Made by a program: the position numbers and the translations under genes
The notes under the pieces: generated by a model
What the model saw: only the letters and a program-made list of their open reading frames with translations
Databases searched by the model: none
Told to the model about the DNA's origin: nothing
Shown: positions 3,698 to 61,863 of the stretch, piece by piece
Layout of the letters: every line of letters begins with the position of its first letter
How positions within the stretch are numbered: position 1 is the first letter of the stretch
Source: an uncultured Clostridia bacterium
Lineage (GTDB): Bacteria > Bacillota > Clostridia > Christensenellales > CAG-314
DNA: 64,000 nucleotides
Reading direction: 5' to 3'
Assembly (NCBI GenBank): GCA_947630425.1
Contig: CANRHN010000001.1
Location: 26,567-90,566 of the forward strand

Positions 3698-3742
3698 AAA
3701 GCCCTTGAAGTTGGCAAGCGACCAATTTCAAGGGCTTTTGTT
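3698..3742. terminator. Bidirectional terminator between ftsH and the convergent lipoprotein gene
   Basis: AAAGCCCTTGAA (3698-3709) pairs with TTCAAGGGCTTT (3727-3738), flanked by an A-run and a T-run. Confidence 0.75.
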
Positions 3743-32847: not shown

Positions 32848-33978
32848 ATGAAAAGAAATCTTGACAAACACACAGTAAAGGGGCTTGTCGCTTCGTCCGT
32901 TGGAATTGCATGCAATTTGTTGCTCTCCGCCGCAAAAATAGCCGTGGGCGTGGTGTTGGGCATGATTTCCGTTGTTGCGGACGGCTTCAACAATTTGGGG
33001 GACTGCTGCAGCGGAATTGTTGCTCTTGTATCGGTGCGCATTGCCTCCAAGCCCGCCGACAAGCTTCACCCTTACGGTCATCGCCGCGCCGAGTATATTG
33101 CCGCAATGGTAACGGGATTTTTGGTGCTGATAGTGGCGGTGGAACTGCTGAAGGAATCCGTGTTCAGCGTCATCGACGGCAAATTTGACGCCGTAAATTG
33201 GGTTGTTTACGTTGTGTTGGGCACGTCGGTGGTTGTAAAGGCGGCAATGTTTGCGTACTACCGCGTTACCGCCAAGCAAATTTGTTCCGACTCGCTCAAA
33301 GCGGCGGCGACGGACAGCCTTTGCGATTGTATTGCAACATTGGCGGTTGTTGTGGGCGCGGTTCTTGCGGAGTTCGGCATTGCGGCAGACGGCTGGGTGA
33401 GCATTGCCGTTGCGTTGTTTGTGGGTTGGCAGGGCGTCAAGCTCGTGCGAGAAGCAAGCTCCAAATTGTTGGGTCAGGCTCCGGACGCAAAACAGGTCAA
33501 CCGCATAAAGGAACTGATACGTTCCTTTGACGGAGTGCTGGGTATGCACGATTTGCACGTGTTTACCTACGGCAACGGAATTGCCTATGCAACCGTACAC
33601 GTGGAAATGGATTCCGAGCTGTCGGCAATGCAGTCTCATGCCGTTTTGGACGAATTGGAACAGGCGGTGTACAGGGCGGAAAAGGTGTATTTGACCGCGC
33701 ACCTCGACCCTGTTGACACGCACGACGAGCAAGCGGCGCAGTTGGAAAAAACATTGTGTGCCGCTTTGGAAAAACGTATAGTCGGAGTGGAAATTCACGA
33801 TTTCAGAATTATTCGCGGCGCGGTTGACAAGCTTGTATTCGATGTGGGAGTGCCCTATGATTGCACTTTGCCCGATGGCGAAATTGAAAAACAGACAGTC
33901 GCCGTTGTCAAAAATTTGGGGGACTACGATGTTGACGTCACCGTCGAAAGGGGAGTAGACGCCGATACTGTTGACTGA
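32848..33978 (+). CDS. Cation diffusion facilitator family transporter
   Basis: Six-TM N-terminal domain with CDF-type D/H sites, plus a cytoplasmic C-terminal domain (HDLHVFTYGNG..A.VHVE). Confidence 0.85.
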   Translation: MKRNLDKHTVKGLVASSVGIACNLLLSAAKIAVGVVLGMISVVADGFNNLGDCCSGIVALVSVRIASKPADKLHPYGHRRAEYIAAMVTGFLVLIVAVELLKESVFSVIDGKFDAVNWVVYVVLGTSVVVKAAMFAYYRVTAKQICSDSLKAAATDSLCDCIATLAVVVGAVLAEFGIAADGWVSIAVALFVGWQGVKLVREASSKLLGQAPDAKQVNRIKELIRSFDGVLGMHDLHVFTYGNGIAYATVHVEMDSELSAMQSHAVLDELEQAVYRAEKVYLTAHLDPVDTHDEQAAQLEKTLCAALEKRIVGVEIHDFRIIRGAVDKLVFDVGVPYDCTLPDGEIEKQTVAVVKNLGDYDVDVTVERGVDADTVD

Positions 33979-34023
33979 TAGCTTTTTTTGCGCTATAATA
34001 TCTTTTGTAAACCAATTCAACAT

Positions 34024-34098
34024 GCTTCCGTAGTTAAATGGATATAACAAGCCCCTCCTAAGGGCTAGTTAGCAGTTCGATTCTGCTCGGGAGTACCA
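34024..34098 (+). tRNA. tRNA-Arg (anticodon CCT)
   Basis: Hand-folded cloverleaf: acceptor GCTTCCG/CGGGAGT (two G-U pairs), D stem GTTA/TAAC, anticodon stem AGCCC/GGGCT with loop CTCCTAA, T arm AGCAG-TTCGATT-CTGCT, discriminator A, CCA. Confidence 0.8.
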
Positions 34099-34189
34099 AT
34101 AGCAGTTCGCTCAGCCGAGGAGCGTAGCGACGAACGCCACGAAGCGTAGCGAAGTATTCTGCTCGGGAGTACCAATAGCGGTTCGCTGC
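34080..34189 (+). repeat. 76-bp-period tandem duplication of the tRNA-Arg 3' end
   Basis: ATTCTGCTCGGGAGTACCAATAGC(A/G)GTTCGCT occurs at 34080-34113 and 34156-34189. The intervening 46 nt (34110-34155) is a short version of the 73-nt insert described below. Confidence 0.85.
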
Positions 34190-34449
34190 GCTCGTCCGAA
34201 AGCGATTGTTGCTTGTAGAGTCGATCGCGTCACATTGTTTCATGCTCCTGTCACCGAAGCAAAAAGGCAACAAGAAAAAGGCTGCAATGGAAAGGAAGCA
34301 CCTAATCGTGCTTCCTTTCCGTTGCAACTACAAGCGCAGTTGCCGCAAATGGCGTTGGGTCGACGGCAAACCTACCGTCCGAAAGGAGGAGGACCAACAT
34401 ATATGGCAAAAGAAAAATCAACAAATATAAAAAAGGGAGAACGAACAAA
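34186..34449 (+). repeat. Cassette 5' flank, copy 1
   Basis: Near-identical to 39984-40245. It contains a reversed tRNA-trailer unit (hairpin GGAAAGGAAGCAC/GTGCTTCCTTTCC at 34289-34320), a tRNA-3'-end-like 23-mer on the minus strand (34350-34372), the SD AAAGGAGGAGG and a 16-codon uORF. Confidence 0.85.
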
Positions 34450-34453
34450 ATGA
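34403..34453 (+). CDS. Conserved 16-codon upstream ORF (MAKEKSTNIKKGERTK), copy 1
   Basis: ATG lies 8 nt after AAAGGAGGAGG. Its TGA overlaps the cargo ATG (ATGA at 34450-34453). The peptide is identical at 40199-40249. Translation has not been shown. Confidence 0.35.
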   Translation: MAKEKSTNIKKGERTK

Positions 34454-34944
34454 GTGAAGCACTTATAGGTCTGTTGAGCGCGGTGATAGGCGTCGTCGTG
34501 GGCGCATTGGGCACATACTTTACATTGCGCTTCAACTACAAGTCGCTGTATGCGCAAGTGGTGTCGCAAAGCCGCAACAATTGGCTTAACGAAATGCGCA
34601 AGTACATATCTCAAATGCTTGCCGCAAAAAAATCGGAGTTAGAATACATTGTCAATCAGTCCGCCAACAACAATCCTTCAATCATCCAAGACTGTCGCGA
34701 AAGATACTATAATGCCAAAGCAGAGGTTCTGATTCGATTGAATAAAAACGAAGATTTACCTAAAAAGTTGGAAAAAGAAATTAAAAAAATAGACAAACTC
34801 GTCAAAAAAGCAAAGCCTGGAAATCAAACAGTTATTAGCGATTTTGAAAATAAAGAAAAAAGAATAATAGATTATTGCAGAGAATACTTCAAAAAAGAGT
34901 GGGAGCGCGTAAAACAAGAGGCGAGTGGCGACGATTATGATTAA
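34450..34944 (+). CDS. Cassette cargo 1: 164-aa N-terminally membrane-anchored helical protein
   Basis: One TM helix (LIGLLSAVIGVVVGALGTYF), then a Lys/Glu-rich helical region. No recognised domain. Confidence 0.6.
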   Translation: MSEALIGLLSAVIGVVVGALGTYFTLRFNYKSLYAQVVSQSRNNWLNEMRKYISQMLAAKKSELEYIVNQSANNNPSIIQDCRERYYNAKAEVLIRLNKNEDLPKKLEKEIKKIDKLVKKAKPGNQTVISDFENKEKRIIDYCREYFKKEWERVKQEASGDDYD

Positions 34945-35456
34945 TCAAAAAAAGGGAGACGAACGTTACAGTTGGTCTCCCTAACATTTTGTTTAATCCC
35001 CATCACAACGGCTGCACTATGCGGTGACGATTTTTTACGAACAGTATGGTTTATTGGATTTAGTATGCGAAAAAATTACGTTATTGCTTTTGCGCTTAAT
35101 ATAATACATAAATATGATGACAAGGCGATGTGTAACTTGAAAAAATATTGGTTAAAAATTGGTTAAAATTCGATATGGAAGTCGGTTAAAAGTGGTGTGC
35201 GAAATGAAATTTAATGCACAAAAGGGCTTGAAACTACCGTAAAATATCCGAAAAAACGGGCGTTTTGGACGATATTTTGCGTAATAAACGTTGTTTTCTC
35301 ATTCGGGGTCTACTTCTAAGCGAGCGGTCTATCCATACAAAACGGGCAAAAACAACAAAAAACAGCCGATTTTGGCAGTAAAACAGCTGTTTTTCACCAA
35401 AATTTGTGCTATTCAAAAAAGTTGGTTAAAATTTTGGTTAAAAAATTTTTAATATT
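34945..35456 (+). repeat. Cassette 3' flank, copy 1
   Basis: 34945-35330 is about 93% identical by eye to 40837-41203, and 35190-35345 is similar to 43050-43256. It contains the hairpin GGGAGAC..GTCTCCC, a TATAAT box and five T(T/C)GGTTAAAA motifs (35148, 35159, 35182, 35422, 35434). Confidence 0.85.
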
Positions 35457-35600
35457 TGTAGTTAAAGGAACATAACTCGGACCACCTAATGGCTAATTGG
35501 CAGTTCGTTCAGCCGAGGAGCGTAGCGACGAACGCCCTCAGCCAAGCACGCAGTGCGCACGCCACGAAGCGTAGTGAAGTATTCTGCTCGGGAGTACCCA
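35457..35600 (+). pseudogene. tRNA-Arg-derived relic with a 73-nt insert in the T-loop
   Basis: 35457-35507 aligns with tRNA-Arg positions 8-57 (GTAGTTAAA..CTAA..GGCT.A.TT.GCAGTTCG) but lacks the 5' acceptor strand. Then come 73 nt (35508-35580), followed by ATTCTGCTCGGGAGTACC (35581-35598). Confidence 0.7.
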
Positions 35601-35746
35601 AAAAAGACGTAAGGAGAAAAACTCTTTACGTTTTTTTTAGCATTCATATTTTTTGACTGTAAAAAACGAACTGCCCCTAAATGGTGAAAAAGGAAAAATG
35701 CAACCATGAAATCATCTTCACTCATGTTTCGGCGATGTATATTGCC

Positions 35747-37198
35747 TCAATACCAATCGTGTTTTTCGTTCCTGTCGAGGGCAGCGATCTCGTTCATTTC
35801 TTCGTTTGAAAGCGAGAAATCGAACACAGAAATGTTTTCGAGGATATGGGCGGGATTACTTGAACCGGGGATCGCCACAACGCCGCGCTGTAAGTGCCAA
35901 CGTAAGATCACCTGCGCCGCCGTCACGTTGTGCGCCTCGGCAATTTTTACGATCGTTTCATCGGAAAGGAGTTCGCCCGTATGCCCTCTGCCGCCGAACG
36001 GATACCATGCCTGCACAACAATTCCCAAATTGTGCATATACGGCACGACGGCTTGCTCCTGATAATACGGGTGTATCTCATTCTGCACGAGCGCAGGTCT
36101 GATGTCCACCTGTGAAATGAAGTCGTCTATTTCTTCGATATACCAATTTGACAGTCCCAAAGAGCGGATCTTTCCGTCTGCCACGGCTTTTTCCATTGCT
36201 TTATACGCCTTAACGTCATTCGCGCCGGGATGGTGCAAGAGCATCATGTCGATATAGCCGATATTAAGTTTGTCGAGCGACTCCTGTATTGCTTCTTCGG
36301 GGTGAGAATATTGTTCGCCGGGGTAGATTTTTGTAATGACGAAAATCTCTTCGCGCGGCACATTCGATTCCCGTATCGCTTCTCCGATTTCCCTTTCGTT
36401 GCCGTACATGTGCGCGGTGTCGATAAGGCGAACGCCGCTTTCAAGTGCCGCTTTCACCGAGGCTTTGCACGTTTCGCCCGTAAGAGAATAAGTGCCAAGT
36501 CCCAAGATCGGCATTTCATATCCGCTGCTGAGAGTTACCGTGGGTGCGTGTCCGTTTTCGCCGCTATTAAGGTCGAACACGGAAACGTCGGGCGCGAATT
36601 TCAGTCCGAGCGAAGCCACCCATTCATCGACCATGCTTTGCGAAGTTCCCGAGGAAAATCTTCTGCCGTCAAGCCAAGTTGCGTCACTTGCGAGCGAATG
36701 TAAATTCGTCGCGCTCAAACCGATGCCGCTACTGTGCGAGGTGCAAAACGGTATGATCGTCTTGCCCGAAAAATCGTAACTTTCAAGAAAAGTATAGATG
36801 ATCTTAGGCGCTTGACTGTGCCAAATAGGATAGCCCAAAAAGACGACTTTGTATTTCTCCATGTTCTCCACGCTTCCGCTTATCGCAGGGCGGGCATCGG
36901 GATCGTTCTGCTCTCTGTCGGCGCGGCAGTCCGTATAGTATTTCAAATCGTCCTCGGTATAGGGTTCTTCGGGAACTATGGAATACAACGTGCCACCCGT
37001 CTTTGCCTCAATATGTTCCGCAACGCCTTTTGTCGTCCCCGTGCAGGAGAAGTAAGCGATCAGTACGTTTGAGACCGCCGCGGGCGTGTCGCTTTCGGGA
37101 GGCGTATGGTTTCCGCCGTTTTGATTCGTATTGTTGCACGCCGAAAAAGAAAATAACGCCATCATGATAATCAAGATGATTCCGAGTGTTTTTCTCAT
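35747..37198 (-). CDS. Lipoprotein-signal flavodoxin-like domain fused to an aldo/keto reductase
   Basis: MRKTLGIILIIMMALFSFSAC lipobox, a flavodoxin-like block (VLIAYFSCTGTTK ... FLGYPIWH), then AKR motifs (LGLGTY, DTAHMYGNE, LHHP). Confidence 0.75.
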   Translation of the reverse strand: MRKTLGIILIIMMALFSFSACNNTNQNGGNHTPPESDTPAAVSNVLIAYFSCTGTTKGVAEHIEAKTGGTLYSIVPEEPYTEDDLKYYTDCRADREQNDPDARPAISGSVENMEKYKVVFLGYPIWHSQAPKIIYTFLESYDFSGKTIIPFCTSHSSGIGLSATNLHSLASDATWLDGRRFSSGTSQSMVDEWVASLGLKFAPDVSVFDLNSGENGHAPTVTLSSGYEMPILGLGTYSLTGETCKASVKAALESGVRLIDTAHMYGNEREIGEAIRESNVPREEIFVITKIYPGEQYSHPEEAIQESLDKLNIGYIDMMLLHHPGANDVKAYKAMEKAVADGKIRSLGLSNWYIEEIDDFISQVDIRPALVQNEIHPYYQEQAVVPYMHNLGIVVQAWYPFGGRGHTGELLSDETIVKIAEAHNVTAAQVILRWHLQRGVVAIPGSSNPAHILENISVFDFSLSNEEMNEIAALDRNEKHDWY

Positions 37199-37211
37199 AA
37201 CTTCGCTTCTT

Positions 37212-38195
37212 TTATAAATTTGCCTTGAAAAACGCCTCGATTTTATCGAACGGAATAACATCGAGCCTGTCATACAGATCGGTATGCACGGCGTTCGGGA
37301 TGATGAGAAGTTCCTTGTTTGCCGCGTATTTGCTGTCCTTTGTCATTGCTGCGTAAGCATCCTTCGAGAAGTAGCAGGAGTGCGCCTTTTCGCCGTGAAT
37401 GAGAAGAACCGCGCTCCGAATTTCGTTGCTGTACGTAAGAATGGGCATGTTCATAAAGGAGAGCGAGGAAGTTTTGTTCCACCCGCCGTTACTGTTCAAA
37501 CTGCGAACATGGTAGCCCCGCTTAGTCTTATAGTAGTCGTAATAATCTTTTACGAAGAAAGGCGCATCGTCGGGAAGAGGATCGACGACTCCGCCGCCGA
37601 GTTCGTAAGTGCCGTTTTTGTAATCCACGGTGCGTTGTGCGTTGAGGGCTTTTTTCGTTTCAAAGCGCGCTTCCTCGCTGTCCTGCGCGTCGAAATAGCC
37701 TTTGGCGTTTACGCGCGTCATGTCGTACATGGTGGAGGCGACCGTCGCCTTGATTCTCGTATCCATCGCCGCCGTATTGATTGCCATTCCGCCCCAACCG
37801 CAAATGCCCAAGATGCCGATTTTGTCCGCGTCCACGTCCTCTCGGCAGGAGAGGAAGTCTACTGCCGCGGAAAAGTCCTCGGTGTTGATGTCGGGAGAAG
37901 CTACATAGCGGGGAAATCCGCCGCTCTCGCCCGTAAACGAGGGGTCGAATGCAATCGCAAGGAAGCCGCGCTTTGCAAGTTCCTGTGCATACAGCCCCGA
38001 ACTCTGTTCCTTCACCGCGCCGAAAGGACCGCACACAGCGACGGCGGGAAACTTTCCGCTTGTATTTTTCGGCTTATACACGTCGCAGGCAAGCGTAATG
38101 CCGTAACGGTTGTGGAACGTCGCCTTGCTATGCTCCACCTTCTCGCTCTTGGGGAACACTTTGTCCCATTCCTTCGTCAACTTCAATTCTTCCAT
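37212..38195 (-). CDS. Alpha/beta hydrolase (dienelactone-hydrolase-like, Cys nucleophile elbow)
   Basis: 327 aa with a GICGWGG elbow (G-x-C-x-G) and alpha/beta-fold spacing. Confidence 0.65.
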   Translation of the reverse strand: MEELKLTKEWDKVFPKSEKVEHSKATFHNRYGITLACDVYKPKNTSGKFPAVAVCGPFGAVKEQSSGLYAQELAKRGFLAIAFDPSFTGESGGFPRYVASPDINTEDFSAAVDFLSCREDVDADKIGILGICGWGGMAINTAAMDTRIKATVASTMYDMTRVNAKGYFDAQDSEEARFETKKALNAQRTVDYKNGTYELGGGVVDPLPDDAPFFVKDYYDYYKTKRGYHVRSLNSNGGWNKTSSLSFMNMPILTYSNEIRSAVLLIHGEKAHSCYFSKDAYAAMTKDSKYAANKELLIIPNAVHTDLYDRLDVIPFDKIEAFFKANL

Positions 38196-38201
38196 GTTTT
38201 T

Positions 38202-38771
38202 TTACTCCTTGATGGTTTTTATGATTTTTGCGGGAACGCCCGCTACAACGGCATTTTCGGGAACATCCTTTGTGACGACTGCGCCTGCGCCGACAACAGC
38301 CCCATCGCCGATTGTTACCCCCGGCAAAATCGTAGCGTGTGCGCCGATCCAAACTTTGTTTCCGATCTTTACGGGCGCGGGGAACATATTGCCGCGCCTT
38401 TCGGGATCCAAATCGTGATTTAAGGTTGCAATCACCACCTGTTGTCCGATGAGGCAATCATCACCTATCTCTATCCCGCCTTGATCTTGAAAGCAACAGC
38501 CCGAATTGATAAAGACACGCTTGCCGAGCGTGATATTCAGTCCGTAGTTGGTGGAAAAGGGCGGGAACAGTCCGAAAGTTTCATCGTATTCTTTTCCGAT
38601 GAGTTCAAAAAACAACCGTCTTAATTCCTCGGGCGCATGATACTTTCCGTTGATCTCTGCCGTAAACGCAAGCGCGCGCTGCGACATCTCGTGCATATAA
38701 AGGTGCGTATCAGACCCTGCGACAAGGTAGGTTCTTGCTTTTGTAGTTTCGGTAAATTGTTCTCTCGTCAT
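38202..38771 (-). CDS. Sugar (maltose/galactoside-type) O-acetyltransferase, left-handed beta-helix
   Basis: Hexapeptide repeats [13 protein letters not shown] ... [27 protein letters not shown]. Confidence 0.75.
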
Positions 38772-38900
38772 ATTCGCCTCGAATTTACATCAATATTATA
38801 ATACGAAAGCATCTAATATGTTAAATACTTATATTTTATAGATTTCCTATGCTTGACAAGCATAGTTTTTGCCGATATAATATTCTCAAAGGAGTTTTTT

Positions 38901-39779
38901 ATGGAACTGCGAGAACTCAAATATTTTTTGGCTGTCGCACGAGAAGAAAGTATTTTGAAAGCGGCGGAAGCATTGTATGTATCCCAACCCAACTTGTCGC
39001 GACAAATGAAGCATTTGGAAGAAGAACTCGGGCAACAGCTCTTTATCCGCGGAAGCAGAAAGATCACGCTTACCGAAGCGGGAGAACTTCTCAAAAAGCG
39101 CGCCGAAGAGATTTTAGACCTGTATCAAAAGACGGAAACGGAACTTTCTTCGCCGTCTGCGGAAATTCGCGGTGACGTCTATATCGGCGGGGGCGAAAGT
39201 TACGTTCTCAAAATCGTAGCAAAAGCGGCGCGCGCCGTGAGGGAAAAATATCCCGCCGTCAAATTTCATTTGTTCAGCGGGGATATGGCGGCAATTGCGG
39301 AGAAACTCGATAAAGGGCTTATCGACTTCGGCATCTTCATCGAACCCGCAGACCTAACAAAGTACGACTATCTCCGCCTTCCCCTCGTAGATACTTGGGG
39401 CGTTCTTATGCGAAAAGACAGTCCGCTCGCGGAAAAGGAATTTGTCACGCCCGAAGATTTGAGGGACGCGCCTTTGATCCGCTCCCGCCATTCGCTTGGG
39501 AAAAGCGTCATCACCGATTGGTTTCAAAGACGGTCGGACGAGCTGAATATCGTCGCCACATACAACCTTATGTATAACGCCTCGCTATTCGTCACCGAGG
39601 GCGTGGGGTATGCCGTGGGGCTTGAACACATCATCAATACGTCGGGTACAAGCGAACTTTGTTTCCGTCCGCTTTTCCCGAAGCTCGTTTCCCACCTTGA
39701 TATTGCTTGGAAAAAGTATCAAGTGTTTCCCAAATGTGCAGAGGTCTTTTTGAAAGAATTGGAAACGAGTATCGTATAG
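38901..39779 (+). CDS. LysR-family transcriptional regulator
   Basis: ATG at 38901 follows AAAGGAG. HTH segment LKYFLAVAREESILKAAEALYVSQPNLSRQMKHLEEELG. Divergent from the three-gene operon. Confidence 0.85.
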   Translation: MELRELKYFLAVAREESILKAAEALYVSQPNLSRQMKHLEEELGQQLFIRGSRKITLTEAGELLKKRAEEILDLYQKTETELSSPSAEIRGDVYIGGGESYVLKIVAKAARAVREKYPAVKFHLFSGDMAAIAEKLDKGLIDFGIFIEPADLTKYDYLRLPLVDTWGVLMRKDSPLAEKEFVTPEDLRDAPLIRSRHSLGKSVITDWFQRRSDELNIVATYNLMYNASLFVTEGVGYAVGLEHIINTSGTSELCFRPLFPKLVSHLDIAWKKYQVFPKCAEVFLKELETSIV

Positions 39780-39983
39780 TCCGTGTCCGCAAAGTGATCT
39801 TGCGGTTTTGCGGATTTTACACCCGACGATTTACACCCGAACAGAATAAAGCAAGATAAAAGTTACCGCGCAAAACGCGCAATAAACAAAAAAACAGGCG
39901 TTCAAAATGCAAAAAACGGCTGTTTTCAGCCGTTTTGAACATCAAAAAGCCTGTTGCTTGCTCCTGAACTAGTTGGCAGTTCG

Positions 39984-40245
39984 CTGCGCTCGTCCGAAAG
40001 CGATTGTTGCTTGTAAAGTCAAGGTCACATTGTTCCGTACTCCCGTCACCGAAACAAAAAGGCAACAATAAAAAGGCTACAATGGAAAAGGAAGCACCTG
40101 ATCGTGTTTCCTTTCCGTTGCAACTACAAGCGCAGTTGCCGCAAATGGCGTTGGGTTGACGGCAAACCAACCGTCTGGAAAGAGGAGGACCAACAAATAT
40201 GGCAAAAGAAAAATCAACAAATATAAAAAAGGGAGAACGAACAAA
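39984..40245 (+). repeat. Cassette 5' flank, copy 2
   Basis: Near-identical to 34186-34449, and preceded by CTAGTTGGCAGTTCG (a tRNA-Arg T-arm-like junction). Confidence 0.85.
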
Positions 40246-40249
40246 ATGA
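40199..40249 (+). CDS. Conserved 16-codon upstream ORF, copy 2
   Basis: Same peptide MAKEKSTNIKKGERTK. Its TGA overlaps the cargo ATG at 40246. Confidence 0.35.
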   Translation: MAKEKSTNIKKGERTK

Positions 40250-40818
40250 GTGATGTAAAACAACCCATCAACAAACAAGAGTATGATGAATTAGAAGCCA
40301 AGATAGGAGAAATTAAGAATTATCTTAAAACAGAAAGTGAAAAAATAGCCGATAAAGTGAATGGAAAGAAAGCAGATTTAAGCCTTTTTAAGGTCAAGAA
40401 ACGCAAACTAAAAAAAGACGAAGGGAAGGGTTATATATGTAATTTTACGCCCAAAACGGACGCCGGTATTTATGTATTTTGTTCAAATAAAACAGAAATT
40501 AAAATACCGAAAAATTTTGATAACGTAAATTATGGCGCAAAACTAAATGAAGGCAATGAAAATGCTAATCGATGCCTTTATGTGGGAAAATCATATGACT
40601 TAAAAAAACGCATTAAAGAACATTTGTCTGAAAAAGACAAATCGCCATATTCATTAAAGTGTAGCCACCCAAACAGGGAACAACTGTTTACGAACTCCAA
40701 GGTTTACATTTTTGAATTGAAAGACGAATTGGTAGAACATAAAGAACTTATACTTCCCACAATTGAAGGTTTTTTACACGAAATGTTGAAACCTCAAATC
40801 GGAACCCCAAGAACATAA
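40246..40818 (+). CDS. Cassette cargo 2: 191-aa GIY-YIG-like nuclease-domain protein
   Basis: GIYVF ... (33-aa spacer) ... LYVGKSYDLKKRIKEH resembles a GIY-YIG core with an unusually long insert. I placed the start at 40246 by homology with cassette 1; the track ORF starts at 40156. Confidence 0.5.
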   Translation: MSDVKQPINKQEYDELEAKIGEIKNYLKTESEKIADKVNGKKADLSLFKVKKRKLKKDEGKGYICNFTPKTDAGIYVFCSNKTEIKIPKNFDNVNYGAKLNEGNENANRCLYVGKSYDLKKRIKEHLSEKDKSPYSLKCSHPNREQLFTNSKVYIFELKDELVEHKELILPTIEGFLHEMLKPQIGTPRT

Positions 40819-40836
40819 ATCTTTCAAGCAAATCAT

Positions 40837-41203
40837 TCAAAAAAGGGAGACGAACGTTACAGTTGGTTTCCCTAAAATTTTGTTTAATCCCCCACCATAA
40901 CGGCTGCACTATGCGGCGGCAATTTTTTACGAACAGTATGGTTTTGTGGATTTAGTATGCGAAAAAATTGCGTTATTGATTTTGCGCTTAATATAATAGA
41001 CAAGGCTATGTGCAACTTGAAAAAATATTGGTTAAAAATTGGTTAAAATTCGATATGAAAGTCGGTTAATAGTAGTGTGCAAAATGAAATTTAATGCACA
41101 AAAGGGCTTGAAACTACCGTAAAATATCCGAAAAAACGGGCGTTTTGGACGATATTTTGCGTAATAAACGTTGTTTTCTCATTTTGGGGTCTACTCCTAA
41201 GTG
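40837..41203 (+). repeat. Cassette 3' flank, copy 2
   Basis: About 93% identical to 34945-35330 with one 11-nt indel. Similarity ends at CTCCTAAGTGA. Confidence 0.85.
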
Positions 41204-41210
41204 ATAGGCT

Positions 41211-41238
41211 GTGGGTTCAATTCCCGCCGAGAACGCCA
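41211..41238 (+). other. Orphan tRNA 3' fragment (T arm, acceptor strand, CCA)
   Basis: GTGGG-TTCAATT-CCCGC, CGAGAAC, G, CCA. No matching 5' half lies upstream. Confidence 0.5.
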
Positions 41239-41345
41239 TTACGGGCGGCCGCGTCATATGTCGCAACAAAAAAAAGGTTCACGCAAGGTGGACCCTTTTC
41301 CCATTGCTCCCGTTCGCTTGCCGCGTCACAGTTTGCTCGGTGGAT
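41239..41345 (+). repeat. tRNA-trailer unit (partial)
   Basis: TTACGGGCGGCCGCGTCATATGTCGCAAC, an A-run, hairpin GGTTCAC/GTGGACC, CTTTTCCCATTGCTCC, CGTCACAG. The architecture matches 19181-19283. Confidence 0.7.
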
Positions 41346-41346
41346 T

Positions 41347-41892
41347 TTAGGATGTAATATTTTTTTGTGAAAATTCAATTGAACTTTTTACATATAATTT
41401 TCCTGATGATGATAGGCGGCATTTTATCTCGGCTTCGGGCAATCGCACTTTACCATTATTTGCAAGCAACAAATGTAGACACTGGTCGTATTCCGTTTCG
41501 GTAATAAGTTTTTTTCCAAACAATCTGTCAAGAATTCCAAGTGTGCCCATCACAGTGACGGATTCCTTTTCGGCGGCATTCCTCAGTGCTTTATCACCTG
41601 TAAGTAAACATAATTTTCTGCATTTAGCAATCGCCAATGCCGTTCTGTCGTACACCGATAATTTTGTAAATTTTGAATAACGCTCTGCCTGCAAGTATTC
41701 TTCTGTTGTCAATTCAACACCGACCAGTCCCGATTGAAGAAGTTTATCTTTCAAACCGTCCGGATGGAGCAATTCCTTGTTTACCGCGTCCCAATGCATT
41801 ATGTACGTATACGGCAACAGAAAAGGTAAATACAACTTGTCAATGACGGCAAAGTCGATCCAAATATTAGTATCGCTGCTTATAAGTTGCAT
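41347..41892 (-). CDS. PIN-like nuclease-domain protein
   Basis: N-terminal SSDTNIWIDF (Asp), central D-R-T-A-L-A, and LLTGDKALRNAA...GTLGIL. The layout is that of PIN-like proteins paired with ImmA/IrrE regulators. Confidence 0.55.
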   Translation of the reverse strand: MQLISSDTNIWIDFAVIDKLYLPFLLPYTYIMHWDAVNKELLHPDGLKDKLLQSGLVGVELTTEEYLQAERYSKFTKLSVYDRTALAIAKCRKLCLLTGDKALRNAAEKESVTVMGTLGILDRLFGKKLITETEYDQCLHLLLANNGKVRLPEAEIKCRLSSSGKLYVKSSIEFSQKNITS

Positions 41893-41893
41893 T

Positions 41894-42940
41894 TCAGTCC
41901 TCGCTATAATTGCATTTTTGTTCTACGAAATCGTGAGTGCATTTCAGTAATTCACAGCCGCGAGTTATATTTATTTCCCCTTCGTTTATTGCTCTAAATA
42001 CCAATTGATTGAAAAGAGATGGCTCTTCGGCGGCAATTCGGCTTGGCTCTTTTTTGTTCCATCCAAGTTGAGAAAAGCGTTTGTAAGCCGCCTCTTCCGC
42101 CGGTTTAGTTATGATTTTGCACAAAAAGGCTCTTTTGGTTAGTAGCCACATGGAAATTCCATATTCTTTGGCCACTAATTGCATATCATTGCTGATATAA
42201 CTCCTGTGTATGCCTAATTCTCGTATCGCATCAACTTTTGGAAAAAGGAATGCTCCCGCAATGGCAGTAGCGCGGGTTTCTATGTCAACTTGTTTGGGGT
42301 TGTTTGAGGTAGACCAATCAAACATCAAGTGCGCCAACTCATGAACGATGGTTGATCTTTTTCGCTCCGTAGACATATTGTCATTGAGCATTATGTAGGG
42401 TCTGTTATTGACAAAGCCGTTTATTCCGGAAAATTTGTCGTCATCTATTTGTTGCAAATAAATCAAAAACCCCTTATTCTCCAACTTGCCGATCAAATCC
42501 TCTATGGGTCCGTCATTGGCAAAACTCAAATGTTTTCTCAACTGCGAGGCGTCATTCTCGGGATTGTCTGTCATGGTCAGACAGTGGCAAACAGGCGATT
42601 CGGGCAAGGTTTCCCCGCCGAGGATTTCCACTGCATCCATAAATCTGCTGAAATATTCTTCAACACTTTCTTGTATCAATTGTTTTTTGCTCTCGGACAA
42701 AGTAGAGTTTTTGCGAAATTCATTGTGGACAAAAATAAGTTGTTGATTTCTGCTCACCAAAAAATCTGAAACTGTTACACCCAGCACCTCGGCGCACTTT
42801 TTAATGATTTCTATGTGGGGTGATCTCGTTCCGTTTTCGTAATTGGTAATAGCCATAGGCGTAACGCCTATCTTGTTTGCCAATTCTTTTTTGGAAAGGG
42901 ATCTTAACAAACGATAATATTTTAAATTTTTGCTGAACAT
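41894..42940 (-). CDS. XRE HTH fused to an ImmA/IrrE-family zinc metallopeptidase
   Basis: HTH segment LSKKELANKIGVTPMAITNYENG and zinc motif HELAHLMF. There is a 1-nt gap to the PIN gene. Confidence 0.8.
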   Translation of the reverse strand: MFSKNLKYYRLLRSLSKKELANKIGVTPMAITNYENGTRSPHIEIIKKCAEVLGVTVSDFLVSRNQQLIFVHNEFRKNSTLSESKKQLIQESVEEYFSRFMDAVEILGGETLPESPVCHCLTMTDNPENDASQLRKHLSFANDGPIEDLIGKLENKGFLIYLQQIDDDKFSGINGFVNNRPYIMLNDNMSTERKRSTIVHELAHLMFDWSTSNNPKQVDIETRATAIAGAFLFPKVDAIRELGIHRSYISNDMQLVAKEYGISMWLLTKRAFLCKIITKPAEEAAYKRFSQLGWNKKEPSRIAAEEPSLFNQLVFRAINEGEINITRGCELLKCTHDFVEQKCNYSED

Positions 42941-43049
42941 ATCTTCACCCCCTGTTTATATTATAACGAATTTTATAAAAAAGTAAACAGTTTTTTACAA
43001 AATTTTATCATTATAAAATAAAATTCAAACAAAATTCTGCCAATTATTA

Positions 43050-43256
43050 AAAATAAGTCAAATTTGGTTGAGATTCTTGTGCAAAATGGAATTTAATGCA
43101 CAAAAGGGCGTAAAACTGCCGCAAAATATGCGAAAAACGGGCATTTTGGACGATATTTTGCGTAATAAACGTTGTTTTCTCATTCGGGGATTACTCCTAA
43201 GCGAGCAGTCTATCCACACAAAACGGGCAAAAACAACAAAAAACAGCCGATTTTGG
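43050..43256 (+). repeat. Cassette 3' flank, copy 3 (distal part only)
   Basis: Aligns with 35190-35345 and 41070-41203, and continues like copy 1 to CAGCCGATTTTGG, where the IS end begins. Confidence 0.75.
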
Positions 43257-43598
43257 TGAAATGCACCCCAAAAATTTGACACAAAGTGAACAACATTAGG
43301 AGGTGCATTTTTATGGCAAAAAAAGGACAAACATTCAAAAAGTATAGCTCGGAATTTAAGCTATGTGTTATACTGTATATGCGCAAAAACAAACTTAGTT
43401 ATCACGAAACTATGCGCAAGTTCAATCTCGGCAATCCCGAGTCCGGCGAGACGCGCAAAATGATACAATGTTGGGAGCGCATATACTTGGAGGAAGGAGC
43501 AGACGGACTTATGAAAGAACGCCGTGGGCGAAGCCCCAAAAGCGGACGTCCGAAAAAACCGTTAGATAAGTAGGTAGAAGAAGATCTTATTGCCGAAA
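43257..43598 (+). mobile_element. IS3-family (IS150-group-like) left end, truncated
   Basis: TGAAATGCACCCCAAAAATTTGACAC resembles IS150-type terminal repeats. The orfA HTH protein follows. Homology ends after VEEDLIAE, and there is no orfB or right end. Confidence 0.6.
43313..43573 (+). pseudogene. IS3-family transposase OrfA fragment
   Basis: MAKKGQTFKKYSSEFKL...ERRGRSPKSGRPKK. An in-frame TAG at 43571 interrupts the typical ...LDK-EVEEDLIAEN continuation. Confidence 0.6.
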
Positions 43599-45014: not shown

Positions 45015-46871
45015 ATGGCTATAAATTGGTCGTTTATTTCTAATCAGCACGGCGAGATTAAAGGTATAAATGATTCGGGTGTAGCTACCTTTAGAGGTAC
45101 ACCGTTAAAATCGTTGGCCAGAGAAATTTGCCAAAACTCTTTGGATGCTTTTGTGGACGATAATCCCGTTGTGGTAGTGTTCCACGCTTTTGATTTGCCA
45201 GTAATTAGCATCCCCGGCGCAGAAGAACTGAAAGATGCTTTTGAACGGTCAAGGGTTTATTGGAGCGGGCAAAAAACATCGCAAACACGTGATTTCTTTG
45301 ATGCCGCATTAAAGGAGTATGAGAAAGGCACTACTTCCGTTTTGCGCATTAGCGATTTTAATACAAAGGGATTACGCGGATCCCGTGAGCTGAAAGATAC
45401 GGACTGGACAAACCTTACGAAGTCGTCGGGCGTATCCGATAAGCATGGAGCGGCTGGGGGCTCGTATGGAATTGGCAAATATGCCACTTTTGCTTGCTCT
45501 AAATTTTCTACAGTTTTTTACAGCACCTACGATATAAATAATGAGCGGGCTTATCAGGGAATTTCTAGAATAGTAACTTTTACGAGAGCAGACGGAGAAG
45601 ATACTACCGGTTTGGGTTTTTACGGTGAAGAGCAAAACAAACCTGTATTCGACCAGTTAAATATCGATCCTAACTTTTCAAGAAAGTTGGAGCAATATGG
45701 CACGGATATTTACATTATGGCTTATGCGCAAGCACAGACAGATTGGAAGAGGGAAATCATCGTTTCAATTCTGGACAGTTTTCTTGTCGCTTTTTGGAAA
45801 AATAAGTTGAAGGTGTGGGTAGAAGACGTTGAAATTAGCAAGGATACCCTCGCTACGCTGATGGACGAATATAAGGGTAGCGTTGATGGATATGTCTGCA
45901 GTTATTATAAGGTCTTGACTTCTCCCGAAACGAAGTGGATTGAAGAAGAAAATTTCTACGGACTTGGCGGTATTAAATTTGGTGTTTTACTGATGGATGA
46001 TGATGCCAGCCGTCGTGTTGCCATGGTCAGACAGACAGGTATGAAAATTAAGGATCAAGGTGGCATTTCGGGCTATATTCCGTTTATGGGAGTAATGCTG
46101 ATAGAAGGTGATGAAATAAATACTCGGTTGAGGTTGATTGAGAACCCTCAACATACAGCGTGGGAGCCTCAAAGGTCGGCTAATGAACAGCAGGCGAGGG
46201 AATTGCTGTCAGCATTGAACGATTTTATGAAACAGTATGTGGGAGAATTAGCTTCGCAAGGTGACGCAATGGAGCTTGATGCGGTAGGCTTAGGCGATTT
46301 ACTACCTGATGACATTAATGCAGATGCCGACAAGTCTAAAGAGGAAAATGTGAGCAATGCAATCGAAGTAATCGAAAGTAAGGTGATTATACAAAAAGAA
46401 AGAAAAATAACGGCAAGTAAAGCCAGGACTAAAACGTTAGATGGCGCAGAAGAAAGAGATTGGGAACCAGACTGGTTACCAAACCCTGATTCTAATCCTA
46501 ATCCACCGCGCCCTCATCTGTCTAAGCCTGTGGAAATTGTTCCGGGGGATAAGACGAAGGTGCAACAGCCTAATGTTATAAGTATTGAAAAATTTGTTTT
46601 CTATTCGCCCAACCGGAAAGAGGGAAAATATACTCTCAGTATTGTTCCTGCCGAGAGTGGTGAAAACGGCACAATAGAGTTGCAAATAGCAGGAGAAGTT
46701 TATAGTTTTCCTGCAACTATCAAAAGTGCAACAAAATCAGGCTTAGCATTGATGGTCGAAGAGAATCGTATTAAGGGCATACAATTTGAAAAGGGTAAAC
46801 AATTGCGCATTTCGGTTGAATTGGCGTGCAAAGACTACTGTGCATTGGAGGTAAGTGCATATGCGGATTAG
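45015..46871 (+). CDS. GHKL (Bergerat-fold, MutL/MORC-like) ATPase, 618 aa
   Basis: N-box REICQNSLDA, G1-like ISDFNTKGLRG and G2 GGSYGIGKYA. The C-terminal 380 aa or so is uncharacterised. Confidence 0.75.
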   Translation: MAINWSFISNQHGEIKGINDSGVATFRGTPLKSLAREICQNSLDAFVDDNPVVVVFHAFDLPVISIPGAEELKDAFERSRVYWSGQKTSQTRDFFDAALKEYEKGTTSVLRISDFNTKGLRGSRELKDTDWTNLTKSSGVSDKHGAAGGSYGIGKYATFACSKFSTVFYSTYDINNERAYQGISRIVTFTRADGEDTTGLGFYGEEQNKPVFDQLNIDPNFSRKLEQYGTDIYIMAYAQAQTDWKREIIVSILDSFLVAFWKNKLKVWVEDVEISKDTLATLMDEYKGSVDGYVCSYYKVLTSPETKWIEEENFYGLGGIKFGVLLMDDDASRRVAMVRQTGMKIKDQGGISGYIPFMGVMLIEGDEINTRLRLIENPQHTAWEPQRSANEQQARELLSALNDFMKQYVGELASQGDAMELDAVGLGDLLPDDINADADKSKEENVSNAIEVIESKVIIQKERKITASKARTKTLDGAEERDWEPDWLPNPDSNPNPPRPHLSKPVEIVPGDKTKVQQPNVISIEKFVFYSPNRKEGKYTLSIVPAESGENGTIELQIAGEVYSFPATIKSATKSGLALMVEENRIKGIQFEKGKQLRISVELACKDYCALEVSAYAD

Positions 46872-47712
46872 GCAAAAGTTCTATCCTTATCCTGTGATGG
46901 AGAGGGGTAACCACTCGTATAAAGAATTCTCTTTTAATGTCGCAACGACAGTGAAGGTTGAAGGGTATAATGTTATTTTTGAATTCAATTCATTTATAGG
47001 AGATGAAAAAATAGCGAATCTTATAGCTACTGGTAAAGCTGTTTTTGCGTACCATATTCAATGCGCGCAGACGTGCTACAGAGCCTCGTTTGAAACGAAA
47101 GATAAAAGCTTCAAAAAGATTATCAAGGAAGATGACCTTAATGGTTTAGTGGAGGTTTGTCCGTTCATTATTGCAAAAGAAAATATCAGGGCTTTCTCAA
47201 GCGAAAGCTTTAGTGCCGACTATATGGGTATTCGCTTTGATGTTGACAAGGGAGGAATCCTTGCAATAGGTGACCAAAGTCAACATATTATCAACAAAGA
47301 CCTCAACGACTTAAATAACAAGTCTTCCATTTTTAAGGTCACAACAGCGCCCAATATTGAAAACATGCGAATTGATATTCGGGACTCCAAAATCTATGTG
47401 GTTTTACCCCAAGAGCAACACGGCATTTATAGAAGTATCAGCAAAAACCCTACTACGCAAAAAACCATGCACGCTATGATTTTTGTTCCAGCACTGATGC
47501 AAGTTCTAGTGGAGTTAAAAAATCGATTAGACGACCAGGGTGATTTTGCGGATTACGCTAGTAGCAGGTGGACGTTGTCATTAGAAAAGGTCGCAGAAAC
47601 ACGATTTAACAAATCTCTTGAAGAATTACTGAGAACGAAAGAGTCGCTTGAATTAGCTCAAATGTTACTTAAAAATCCCATGAATGAAGCATTTGAATTG
47701 TATAGGAGCTAA
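46855..47712 (+). CDS. Hypothetical 285-aa protein
   Basis: Overlaps the ATPase gene by 17 nt (alternative ATG at 46861). No recognised domain. Confidence 0.6.
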   Translation: MHMRIRQKFYPYPVMERGNHSYKEFSFNVATTVKVEGYNVIFEFNSFIGDEKIANLIATGKAVFAYHIQCAQTCYRASFETKDKSFKKIIKEDDLNGLVEVCPFIIAKENIRAFSSESFSADYMGIRFDVDKGGILAIGDQSQHIINKDLNDLNNKSSIFKVTTAPNIENMRIDIRDSKIYVVLPQEQHGIYRSISKNPTTQKTMHAMIFVPALMQVLVELKNRLDDQGDFADYASSRWTLSLEKVAETRFNKSLEELLRTKESLELAQMLLKNPMNEAFELYRS

Positions 47713-47717
47713 TAATT

Positions 47718-48425
47718 ATGAACGCAAAATTTATCAGGCAAGAGGATGTGGCTCAGCTATATGGAAATATTGGCGAATTATATAAGCAAGTGGTATGTGG
47801 TGGAAAATCCTTGGAAGAGTACTTAGGGAAAGATTGCGTGGTACAGGATGCGAATATCATTATCGAAGACTTCACACTCGATATGTCGGAAAGCAATGCT
47901 GTTTTAACCGATCTTGAGAATGTAAGACGGGTTTATAAAGCGATGTTGGGGTTGAGTAATTCGCAGGCATCCGATGAGCGTATATGGTTGGCATATTCGT
48001 TCGGCGTATTCAAAGACTATATGAACTACCGTTGGCCCGCAAAGGATGAGAGTACGATTAAGAATAGATGGCTCTTCGGTTATGCTGCCAAGCGTTCATT
48101 ATTTAGACATGGTATTGCGCGTCTTTGGTGGATAGGTAGGTGTACCTATGATAAAGGTAGGGCGGATCCATTTGAGTTAACGGCTTATGTAATAACGAAA
48201 CAGGATATAATAAATCAGTTGCTGGATATAGGTTTTAACGGAAACAAGGAGTTAGTGCTTGCCATAATTGAAGCCATTAGGGACGCCGAGAAAGAAGGCA
48301 AATCGGTGGGACGAGAGGAAATTCGTTCCGTGTCCAGATTTGTTAATTCACTTGGTGGTATGTATTTAATTGATTCGTGGGAGCACGATGAAATTTATCA
48401 GCGAGTTAAAGAAATCTTCGAATGA
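47718..48425 (+). CDS. Hypothetical 235-aa protein
   Basis: 5-nt gap from the previous gene. No domain I can name with confidence. Confidence 0.6.
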   Translation: MNAKFIRQEDVAQLYGNIGELYKQVVCGGKSLEEYLGKDCVVQDANIIIEDFTLDMSESNAVLTDLENVRRVYKAMLGLSNSQASDERIWLAYSFGVFKDYMNYRWPAKDESTIKNRWLFGYAAKRSLFRHGIARLWWIGRCTYDKGRADPFELTAYVITKQDIINQLLDIGFNGNKELVLAIIEAIRDAEKEGKSVGREEIRSVSRFVNSLGGMYLIDSWEHDEIYQRVKEIFE

Positions 48426-54558: not shown

Positions 54559-54586
54559 GTTTGTGGGAAGCGAGTTCGCGGGTTCG

Positions 54587-54659
54587 TTCAACCGAGGAGC
54601 GTAGCGACGAACGCCCTCAACCAAGCACGCATTGCGCCCGCCACGAAGCGTAGCAAAGT
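54587..54659 (+). repeat. 73-nt insert element, third copy
   Basis: About 90% identical to 35508-35580. It is preceded by GCGGGTTCG and followed by ACAACGCGCC rather than the tRNA-Arg 3' end. Confidence 0.8.
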
Positions 54660-54757
54660 ACAACGCGCCGCGCGTCAAGACAAGCACATGTCCCATTGTC
54701 ATTTTGATACAAATGTTATAATTATTGGTTAAAATTAAAATAAAAAAGGAGAAAAAT

Positions 54758-55711: not shown

Positions 55712-55872
55712 TATTAGCATAATAGATACACAATACATAAAAAAGTATATATCATTTGCTTTGAAATGTAAATAGTTTCCGCTTTTCTTTTGATTTTTCC
55801 TGTCGAGTTTTGTGCCAACATACAACAATTCAAAAGCAAATTCCGAGTTTCTGTGTATCTATTATGCTAATA
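55712..55872. promoter_or_regulatory. 161-bp segment bounded by perfect 21-bp inverted repeats (candidate invertible promoter, or a MITE)
   Basis: TATTAGCATAATAGATACACA (55712-55732) is the exact reverse complement of 55852-55872. A TG-extended -10 (TGATATATA, minus strand, 55754-55746) lies inside the segment. Confidence 0.6.
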
Positions 55873-55952
55873 GGCACACAAAAAATCACCCAAAATTTGT
55901 GCATATGTTGTCTAATAAAACAAACATTTGTCACGCAAAAGGAGAACCAAAA

Positions 55953-58178: not shown

Positions 58179-58256
58179 TCGGGATATTGTTGACAAAAGG
58201 CAGACAAGTAAATTAAAAGGGTAATATAAAAACATGTTAATGTGGAGCTAACAATA

Positions 58257-61842: not shown

Positions 61843-61863
61843 TGGCGGAAGAGATGGGATTCG
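61843..61863 (-). repeat. Duplicate of the tRNA-Ser 3' 21-mer
   Basis: TGGCGGAAGAGATGGGATTCG is identical to 62037-62057 (complement of T-loop to CCA). Confidence 0.85.

Follow-up and report, generated by a model that had tools for sequence, protein, structure and literature searches.

What is the nature of the near-identical non-coding flanks that, in an uncultured Clostridia bacterium, surround single genes that are unrelated to each other? The question is raised by a stretch of 64,000 nucleotides (GenBank assembly GCA_947630425.1, contig CANRHN010000001.1, positions 26,567 to 90,566), referred to here as the window, which contains two such modules and part of a third. A previous description made from the letters of the DNA, the sequence-only reading, had interpreted the flanks as a reusable expression and recombination scaffold into which accessory genes are swapped. 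The present analysis retained the non-coding recombination scaffold with interchangeable single genes and discarded the independent expression platform, the edges of the scaffold being att-type junctions in tRNA-Arg(CCT). The two cassettes and the partly preserved third unit are probably small integrase-less members, or remnants, of an element family of gut Clostridia whose target is the anticodon loop of tRNA-Arg(CCT).

Repeated flanks enclose unrelated genes

The modules comprise the following features, given in window coordinates.

34178-34449, plus strand: 5' flank of module 1; apparent tRNA trailer, in which a 19-bp hairpin lies at 34284-34325, followed by a leader with small hairpins, an upstream open reading frame (uORF) of 16 codons and a Shine-Dalgarno sequence
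34450-34944, plus strand: cargo 1; 164 amino acids (aa), N-terminal hydrophobic helix read from the sequence, no Pfam family
34945-35312, plus strand: 3' flank of module 1, the putative P arm of an attP site; hairpin GGGAGAC..GTCTCCC at its start, three copies of a putative arm-type motif
39984-40245, plus strand: 5' flank of module 2, delimited by blastn and alignment
40246-40818, plus strand: cargo 2; 190-aa GIY-YIG-domain protein, the match being weak and just above the Pfam cut-off
40837-41193, plus strand: 3' flank of module 2 (putative P arm); motif copies at 41028 and 41039
41347-42940, minus strand: cargo of the third unit; PIN-like protein (41347-41892) and a helix-turn-helix (HTH) plus M78 peptidase protein (41894-42940)
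43060-43256, plus strand: third copy; putative distal P arm (43060-43193), core CTCCTAAG (43194-43201) and start of the P' spacer (43202-43256), cut by an insertion sequence (IS) fragment
43257-43573, plus strand: IS3-family-like fragment (OrfA, HTH_28) that cuts the third copy; truncated open reading frame (ORF) at 43286-43573, found with Pfam

When the flanks were compared with the window by blastn, the two 5' flanks (34178-34457 and 39976-40253) were 91.8% identical over 281 nt (E 1e-111) and the two 3' flanks (34948-35323 and 40839-41204) were 91.0% identical in a 378-nt alignment (E 8e-151) containing one 12-nt indel. Near-identical flanks around unrelated cargo, as claimed by the sequence-only reading, were therefore borne out at about 91-92% identity, with small shifts in coordinates; for the 3' flank the repeat itself stood, and the estimates of 93% identity and an 11-nt indel were replaced by the measured values. 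The third copy, a partial one of the distal 3' flank, was 92% identical to 35196-35375 and 86% identical to 41058-41204. It stopped abruptly at 43256, beyond which the OrfA fragment begins, in agreement with the proposal that it had been cut by an IS3 end; a plasmid homologue of the OrfA-like ORF sits immediately upstream of an annotated 'IS3 family transposase'.

Modules 1 and 2 each contain one cargo ORF only, and the two cargo sequences are unrelated. This part of the earlier description held; cargo 2, previously given as a 191-aa GIY-YIG-like protein, is one residue shorter and its domain match is weak. Alignment confirmed that identity extends through ATGAGTGA, the opening 8 nt of both cargo ORFs. 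Similarity restarts 4 nt past the stop codon in module 1 and 22 nt past it in module 2, and at their far ends the modules cease to be alike right at an anticodon-loop-like CTYCTAAG, both 3' flanks leading into tRNA-like sequence. The uORF, hairpins and repeated TTGGTTAAAA motifs previously noted in the flanks were all present, as was the lack of a long ORF. A degraded protein-coding gene was rejected as the source of the flanks: the 72-aa ORF of flank 1 has no database homologue and is not kept open in flank 2, where indels disrupt the frame.

As a separate observation, a direct repeat of 17-18 nt, AAAAAAGGGAGA(A)CGAAC, brackets each cargo (34429-34446 and 34947-34964; 40225-40242 and 40839-40855), and without the cargo the uORF would continue to a TAA within the 3' flank.

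Four junction types meet in the anticodon loop of tRNA-Arg(CCT)

The tRNA-like sequences that adjoin the flanks are listed below.

34024-34098, plus strand: intact tRNA-Arg(CCT), 'type 1' (ARAGORN, Rfam); anticodon loop CTCCTAAG at 34055-34062, equivalent to an attB-type core
35313-35320, plus strand: octamer core of module 1, CTTCTAAG, which departs from CTCCTAAG at one position; arranged P arm-core-spacer, attP-like
35321-35455, plus strand: putative P' spacer; terminator-like hairpin at about 35358-35393, TTGTGC-17-TAAAAT, motif pair at 35422 and 35434
35458-35600, plus strand: decayed type-1-like tRNA copy; T-loop split by 73 nt (35508-35580), third tRNA 3'-end copy at 35581-35598
39870-39983, plus strand: decayed P' spacer (about 39870-39960) and type-1 tRNA remnant (39961-39983) from anticodon loop to T-loop, CTCCTGAACTAGTTGGCAGTTCG
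41194-41330, plus strand: attR-type junction; core CTCCTAAG at 41194-41201, 'type 2' tRNA-Arg(CCT) 3' half to CCA (41238), native trailer and terminator

The decayed spacer before module 2 aligned locally to 35337-35427 (z 8.9), and the attR-type junction at 41194-41330 was 80-85% identical to the intact tRNA and native trailer of the relatives L014 and L070. A junction table was then compiled from every occurrence of the octamer with both of its neighbours, the left being either the tRNA 5' half or the 3' flank, and the right either the tRNA 3' half or the spacer. All four partner combinations were found at CTCCTAAG. The B-B' combination (tRNA 5' half, core, tRNA 3' half) is represented by intact genes in the window, L014, L027, L070 and others. 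The B-P' combination (attL type; 5' half, core, spacer and intact tRNA) occurs at at least nine loci: L027 (twice), L082, L090, L097, L111, L112, L117, L134, L144 and L146. The P-P' combination (attP type; 3' flank, core, spacer) is found at window positions 35313 (module 1) and 43194 (module 3) and in L006, and the P-B' combination (attR type; 3' flank, core, tRNA 3' half) at window position 41194 (module 2) and in L118. Since four-way partner exchange at an octamer is a classical signature of site-specific recombination, the 3' flank was taken to be the P arm of attP.

All of the junctions map to the anticodon loop of tRNA-Arg(CCT), which places attB inside the host tRNA gene. The sequence common to the partners is CTCCTAAG alone (± 2 nt), which is too short to rebuild the tRNA, so the element is expected to carry a tRNA-Arg(CCT) of its own. 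Consistent with this expectation, an intact tRNA-Arg(CCT) was located 135-190 nt past the core in L027, L082, L111, L112, L134, L144 and L146. The junctions of 5' half and spacer are not themselves tRNAs, because ARAGORN called only the downstream intact copy. In the window, the position of the element-borne tRNA is held by the decayed tRNA at 35458-35600 and the remnant at 39961-39983; the intact gene at 34024-34098 precedes module 1.

The 5' flank is also related to the tRNA gene. It begins right behind a tRNA 3' end in module 1 and in L005, and in module 2 behind a decayed tRNA copy that is itself preceded by a decayed spacer. With the trailer hairpins of tRNA-Pro (19204-19254) and of the native tRNA-Arg (41270-41320), its 19-bp hairpin forms one family. 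On this comparison, the first 150 nt or so of the flank are read as a tRNA-gene trailer. A minus-strand tRNA-like 3' end inside the 5' flank was considered and rejected, the reverse BLAST match to the tRNA-Pro trailer stemming from the near-palindromic hairpin.

The junctions are linked to a family of 472-aa tyrosine integrases

The flanks occur in contigs of the same strain in ENA and in two Logan contigs. They were not found in phages or plasmids, nor in IMG/VR, the GTDB representatives or the JGI metagenomes, by exact-pattern and BLAST searches, which returned chance matches at most; the pattern searches used a 23-mer for the GTDB representatives and a 24-mer and a 20-mer for the JGI metagenomes (just chance matches of 21-27 nt). 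A scan of the GTDB representatives for the doubled motif TTGGTTAAAAN{1,2}TTGGTTAAAA gave 89 matches, mostly chance, and among these were six loci from four rabbit-gut 'uncultured Clostridia' metagenome-assembled genomes (MAGs).

The 144 nt behind the module-1 flank (35313-35455) were 88-94% conserved in the rabbit-gut Clostridia MAG loci, where this spacer is preceded by a 40-nt tRNA-Arg(CCT) 5' half that closes with CTCCTAAG and is followed by an intact tRNA-Arg(CCT). The resulting 176-nt unit (40-nt 5' half and 136-nt spacer) is tandemly repeated up to three times upstream of the intact gene, and each cycle of integration and loss may leave one such unit. Tandem units were seen in L027 (2157-1761, minus strand), L097 (3262-3484), L082 (1-288) and L090 (7427-7579), and they are a frequent place for contigs to end.

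Beyond the intact tRNA of L027 lies a convergent gene for a 472-aa tyrosine integrase. This integrase family comprises at least 399 database clusters at E≤1e-40. The contexts that were read (L111-L117 and L134-L147), which have differing host neighbours, all begin with a host tRNA-Arg 5' half, then CTCCTAAG and the spacer, which are followed in order by the intact tRNA-Arg(CCT), a terminator, int and xis. The integrase gene is convergent and lies just beyond the intact tRNA in every context read for this family except L118, where the complementary junction was found: a homologue of the 3' flank, CTCCTAAG, the tRNA 3' half and int. The integrase-bearing relatives encode xis, a sigma-like gene, a resolvase and surface proteins, and no phage structural genes were present in the stretches read.

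The P arm of L118 aligned to the 3' flank of the window over about 190 nt (z 11.2; E 1e-15), with three motif copies at equivalent positions, and it adjoins a different gene, which encodes an AAA_14/DUF4143 ATPase. An analogous 15-nt repeat, ATAGTTAATAAAACA, was observed either side of the AAA_14 gene (near 3735 and 2210).

A repeated motif is a candidate arm-type site

The 10-mer TTGGTTAAAA has eight exact copies in the 64 kb, six of them in the flanks or the adjoining spacer and one just upstream of the ATG of the window's integrase gene. In module 1, the P-arm copies at 35148, 35159 and 35182 lie at -165, -154 and -131 from the core, the last reading TCGGTTAAAA, and the spacer copies lie at +109 and +121. 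The distance of the spacer pair from the core is constant (+100 to +122), even in L111 and L144, whose tRNA begins about 70 nt farther off behind a separate promoter. The motif also covaries by lineage in both the P and P' arms (TGGTTAAAA versus TGGTATAAA): in a lineage with integrases of about 66% identity, TGGTATAAA occupies the equivalent positions, both in the P arm of L118 and in the L111, L112, L134, L144 and L146 spacers. Because of the constant distance, the P-arm copies and the lineage covariation, TTGGTTAAAA is likely to be an arm-type integrase site, a reading favoured over that of a generic motif. That it is a mere tRNA promoter element is made less likely by the first two of these observations.

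Proposed mechanism

These observations suggest the following sequence of events. The tyrosine integrase, of 472 aa in related genomes, would recombine attP with the tRNA gene at the 8-nt core CTCCTAAG, and the element would supply its own tRNA-Arg(CCT), some 135-180 nt from the core, behind a terminator and a promoter. The newly supplied tRNA would be a fresh target, with later elements entering either that tRNA or the left junction; as both would be open to them, a tandem or nested pile-up is predicted. The attP-type junctions in the chromosome would arise in tandem arrays of related elements, by integration into the left junction of a resident. A left junction would later be lost by recombination, and the order of the integration events in the window is likewise part of the model.

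In structural terms, the 3' flank would be the P arm with three arm-type sites, and the sequence past the core the P' arm, or spacer. The 5' flank would consist of the trailer of the element tRNA followed by the structured leader and uORF, and the cargo slot would lie between leader and P arm. A full unit would thus comprise a spacer of about 135 nt, a tRNA of about 75 nt, trailer and leader of about 270 nt, cargo of 0.5-0.6 kb and a P arm of about 365 nt, or about 1.5 kb without an integrase. The third unit consists of a tRNA 3' half, a trailer, the RmrA/PIN pair on the opposite strand and a shortened P arm.

The internal joints of modules 1 and 2 coincide although the two have diverged by 8%, which means that the short backbone has at least been passed on in this form. 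The small units may be either mobilisable satellites or fixed deletion derivatives. A bolder proposal, which we regard as doubtful, is that the units of about 1.5 kb are functional minimal 'tRNA cassettes' and not products of decay. Each would combine attP and a single promoterless gene with a replacement tRNA-Arg(CCT), and full-size relatives would provide the 472-aa integrase for its mobilisation in trans.

Several findings weigh against assigning the modules to this element family. No homologue of the 472-aa integrase was detected in the 64-kb window (best match 29%); the modules were filed for this reason as integrase-less derivatives or satellites and not as autonomous members, and their present mobility is hypothetical. 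Neither the 5' flank nor the proximal 3' flank was found outside this lineage. The attL-type junction of 5' half and spacer is not present in the window, so that its loss must be assumed, and the core of module 1 has a mismatch (CTTCTAAG). The motif resembles an extended -10 element, and its first copy in L112 and L134 is the -10 of a consensus element-tRNA promoter. L118 is the sole distant P-arm homologue found, and the left end of its element lies outside the retrieved DNA. Finally, the 4-kb block at 35640-39800, which encodes an aldo/keto reductase, a hydrolase, an acetyltransferase and a LysR protein, has a host-like G+C content. Its right edge (39600-39870) showed no similarity to the P arm (z about 0), and the array is consequently not completely parseable.

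Cargo genes and their exchange

Cargo 1 has about 206 representative homologue clusters and belongs to a real family of 140-170-aa proteins. In the third unit, the HTH and M78 peptidase protein, which the sequence-only reading had called ImmA, matched the RmrA models of PADLOC (E 2e-38). By similarity, it and the adjoining PIN-like protein form a RosmerTA-type pair, RmrA being the regulator or antitoxin-type partner in RosmerTA systems.

The loci L005 and L006 (Logan DRR855156 and DRR855143) carry a cargo 1 that is 99.8% identical to the window copy, between flanks that are just 95-96% identical; their distal 3' flank, indel state included, is 99% identical to that of module 2. This mismatch between cargo and flank identity implies separate histories, as expected from recombination or gene conversion in the flanks. 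Such exchange within conserved flanks would shift genes between backbones and leave them with differing cargo. It was also observed that in both loci the cargo 1 gene is better conserved than the surrounding non-coding DNA.

A search of the 5' flank revealed no promoter-like site. The sole good promoter upstream of cargo 1 was the following.

33971-33999, plus strand: sigma-70-like promoter TTGACT-17-TATAAT, 24 nt upstream of the intact tRNA-Arg

As no promoter was found in the flank itself, the cargo is probably transcribed by read-through from this tRNA promoter, which would be the simplest route.

Alternative explanations

The modules could instead have arisen by local segmental duplication, in which a segment of about 1.2 kb beside tRNA-Arg was copied once or twice in the island and its inner gene was replaced later, with no mobility and with the tRNA fragments left by unrelated older integrations. 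The confinement of the flanks to this lineage, the spacing of the copies (5.8 and 2 kb, within one island) and the lack of a cognate integrase in the window agree with such an origin, and the short repeat around the cargo might be the trace of a simple recombination joint. The flank repeats, however, have their outer boundaries at att-type junctions in an octamer that is used by at least nine other loci, and the partner past the core differs between copies (spacer or tRNA 3' half), whereas plain duplication would copy one partner. The sequence-only reading had set a simple recent duplication against its own scaffold, and two results are contrary to it: the outer scaffold has a diverged homologue in another genome, on the unrelated contig L118, in attR configuration and beside another gene, and cargo 1 sits on a different flank mosaic in L005 and L006, which does not fit a one-off event. 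Furthermore, the flanks diverge by 8-9%, whereas cargo 1 is 99.8% identical across samples, which argues against a single recent copy. Duplication is accordingly considered an unlikely origin of the modules.

An alternative that appears decidedly improbable is that the flanks serve mainly for expression, with the 5' flank acting as a structured leader and uORF regulator and the 3' flank as a terminator or small-RNA region, selected for the expression of toxic or defence genes, with the proximity of att sites incidental. The whole 5' flank folded significantly better than shuffled sequence (z -4.4), the uORF stop overlaps the cargo start as ATGA in both modules (uORF at 34403-34453 in module 1), a hairpin lies directly 3' of each cargo stop, and 39 nt of the distal 3' flank are invariant across all copies. 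In contrast, the 3' flank as RNA folded no better than shuffles (z -1.4), an Rfam search of the flanks gave no family even at E≤1, and the 5' flank lacks a detectable promoter. This explanation also leaves the end of the flanks at CTCCTAAG junctions, and the motif that covaries by lineage, unaccounted for. An expression role for the 5' flank is compatible with membership of the tRNA-targeting family, as a secondary role and not as an alternative.

An integron-like system, in which an integron-type integrase captures cassettes at a dedicated site through folded attC-like hairpins, is extremely improbable: the apparently promoterless single genes between conserved non-coding elements, the hairpin at the cargo 3' end and weak, sub-threshold matches of the integrases to integron-integrase models recall it, but the IntI-model matches reach 46-47 bits against a cut-off of 265, there is no attI/Pc arrangement, and the boundaries are anticodon-loop junctions with arms of about 150-360 nt and repeated motifs, an attP architecture, and not attC sites of 60-120 nt with imperfect palindromes.

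Comparison with known systems

Membership of a tRNA-targeting element family, the interpretation preferred here, describes a mechanism that is not new in kind. In the tRNA-dependent lysogeny of mycobacteriophages (Fionnbharth, Cluster K4/L), a tyrosine integrase uses an attB in a host tRNA gene (Guerrero-Bustamante & Hatfull, mBio 2024, PMC10865867). The core is about 10 bp, the tRNA is not rebuilt and an element tRNA complements it, as was shown experimentally, and the authors speculated that a second copy could integrate into the element-borne tRNA (PMC10865867). The Clostridia elements are similar in having a core of about 8-10 bp, a tRNA that is not rebuilt and arm-type sites around the core. 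They differ in host (gut Clostridia) and target (tRNA-Arg(CCT)), in being known from sequence alone, in having the replacement tRNA immediately beside attP, and in their arrays of 176-nt scars of 5' half and spacer and their integrase-less units with a single cargo. A cognate integrase, characteristic of tRNA-replacing elements, lies beside the tRNA in the relatives and is lacking from the window modules.

The accretion in tandem of integrative and conjugative or mobilisable elements and of cis-mobilisable elements (CIMEs) by site-specific recombination is named in reviews (e.g. PMC5704250). Like CIMEs, the units described here are flanked by att sites, lack recombination genes, lie in tandem with relatives at one attachment site and have arms in common with integrase-bearing relatives: module 2 is bounded by 39870-39983 and by the P arm and core at 40837-41201, and module 1 by the tRNA and by P arm, core and spacer, neither containing recombinase or transfer genes. 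Classical CIMEs, from the work on ICESt1 of Streptococcus thermophilus, are reportedly located at the 3' end of a protein gene (fda), are several kb long and bring no replacement target gene; unlike them, each unit here can renew its target by bringing a tRNA.

The tycheposons of Prochlorococcus are said to be tRNA-linked elements with tandem cargo modules between partial tRNA repeats, some units being without integrases and the cargo being adaptive or defensive; they reportedly restore the tRNA through a long shared 3' segment and not by replacement. The locus resembles them as an island of stacked tRNA-linked cargo modules, some of which lack an integrase. It differs from them in recombinase families and hosts, and in that the tRNA is replaced. 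Tycheposons are the subject of bioRxiv 10.1101/2020.12.28.424599.

The exchange of single accessory genes, partly of defence type, between conserved non-coding sequences is a feature common to integron cassettes and P2/P4 hotspots; at this locus such sequences are read as attP arms and the trailer of a tRNA. The earlier judgement that the modules are reminiscent of, but distinct from, those systems was upheld, no integron integrase, attC-like site or P2/P4-like phage context having been found. A repeat search of the window detected no inverted repeats of 40 nt or more, there was no similarity to 50,697 phage records or to IMG/VR, and the PHROGs matches were limited to the integrase and a regulator.

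Implications

If the proposed mechanism is correct, the logic described for a few actinobacteriophages in 2024, in which an element destroys a tRNA and brings its own, reaches a large integrase family of gut Clostridia. The element-borne tRNA would then serve as a renewable landing pad, giving rise to tandem 176-nt scars and to stacks of small cargo units. In uncultured Clostridia, the limits of defence islands at tRNA-Arg(CCT) could then be set by rule, and the 164-aa membrane protein would be highlighted as a candidate by its slot, which is shared with the GIY-YIG protein and the RosmerTA-type pair. The compact module of attP and tRNA might be a possible integration vector for these Clostridia. 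Should the units also be functional 'tRNA cassettes', each insertion would destroy the resident tRNA and supply the next target, producing a self-renewing site and an open-ended array of defence genes driven by a tRNA promoter, that is, an integron-like gene-capture platform on a tRNA anticodon loop.

The window integrase and T-loop scars

A second type of tRNA-associated sequence was represented by three further features.

34099-34175, plus strand: 77-nt unit without an ORF, ending in a second tRNA 3'-end copy, ATTCTGCTCGGGAGTACCA (34156-34174)
54582-54660, plus strand: copy (92%) of the 73-79-nt insert of the decayed tRNA (35503-35581), just upstream of the integrase promoter region
54758-55666, plus strand: tyrosine integrase, 302 aa, with no other integrase in the window; distance to the modules 13 kb

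The 302-aa integrase is 81% identical to the L014 integrase, which lies about 400 nt downstream of an intact tRNA-Arg(CCT) with no 5'-half scar, and only 29% identical to the 472-aa family of the CTCCTAAG junctions. It was rejected as an unlikely enzyme of those junctions on the basis of this low identity and of the scar-free tRNA in the relative. The copy of the 79-nt insert beside it links it instead to the T-loop-type scars and not to the anticodon-loop system. The unit at 34099-34175 appears to be one such T-loop-type integration scar, separate from the anticodon-loop system.

All three tRNA genes of the window (Pro, Ser and Arg) are trailed by one or two extra 3'-end copies, from T-loop to CCA, at 19181-19565, 61843-62036, 34099-34175 and 35508-35598. 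The copies are separated by ORF-less units of 75-200 nt, each of which contains a repeat of the tRNA trailer and, at its end, a conserved piece with GAAATAATGTAGCG in the case of Pro and Ser or GCGTAGCGA in that of Arg. The MAG loci L070 (6823-7210, two units) and L082 (289-473) showed this pattern as well. These extra 3' ends look like scars of a second element type that targets the T-loop.

The 8-mer GCAGTTCG at the start of the 5' flank has shuffled partners at 34072, 34102, 34178, 35500, 39976 and 54576. It might be a second site-specific core, in the T-loop, although the two joints of tRNA body and flank are equally explained by a slip deletion of 30 nt, between the T-arm GCAGTTCG and a GCRGTTCG 30 nt downstream.

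The surrounding defence island

The region from 40 to 59 kb has a low G+C content and is a defence island, to which the RmrA/PIN pair and the 302-aa integrase also belong. A complete PDC-M33 set, a PADLOC candidate defence system, is located at 45015-48425 (A, 1.9e-204; B, 3.7e-80; C, 6.6e-71, C being DUF6339) and is preceded by a 76-aa ORF. Right behind these genes, 48438-51983 encodes an 1181-aa protein with three RNA-polymerase alpha C-terminal domains, followed on the minus strand (52001-54094) by a single 697-aa fusion of a C-5 cytosine methyltransferase (Dcm) and an NgoFVII-type restriction endonuclease. Beyond the integrase, 55812-59264 encodes a TPR-TIR protein (788 aa) and then a SIR2-like protein (340 aa). 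The gene at 59257-61029, which starts inside the end of the SIR2 gene, encodes a 590-aa SPFH/Band-7 protein with several zinc ribbons, one of which gave a Cas12f1-like TNB-domain match (E 1.9e-8).

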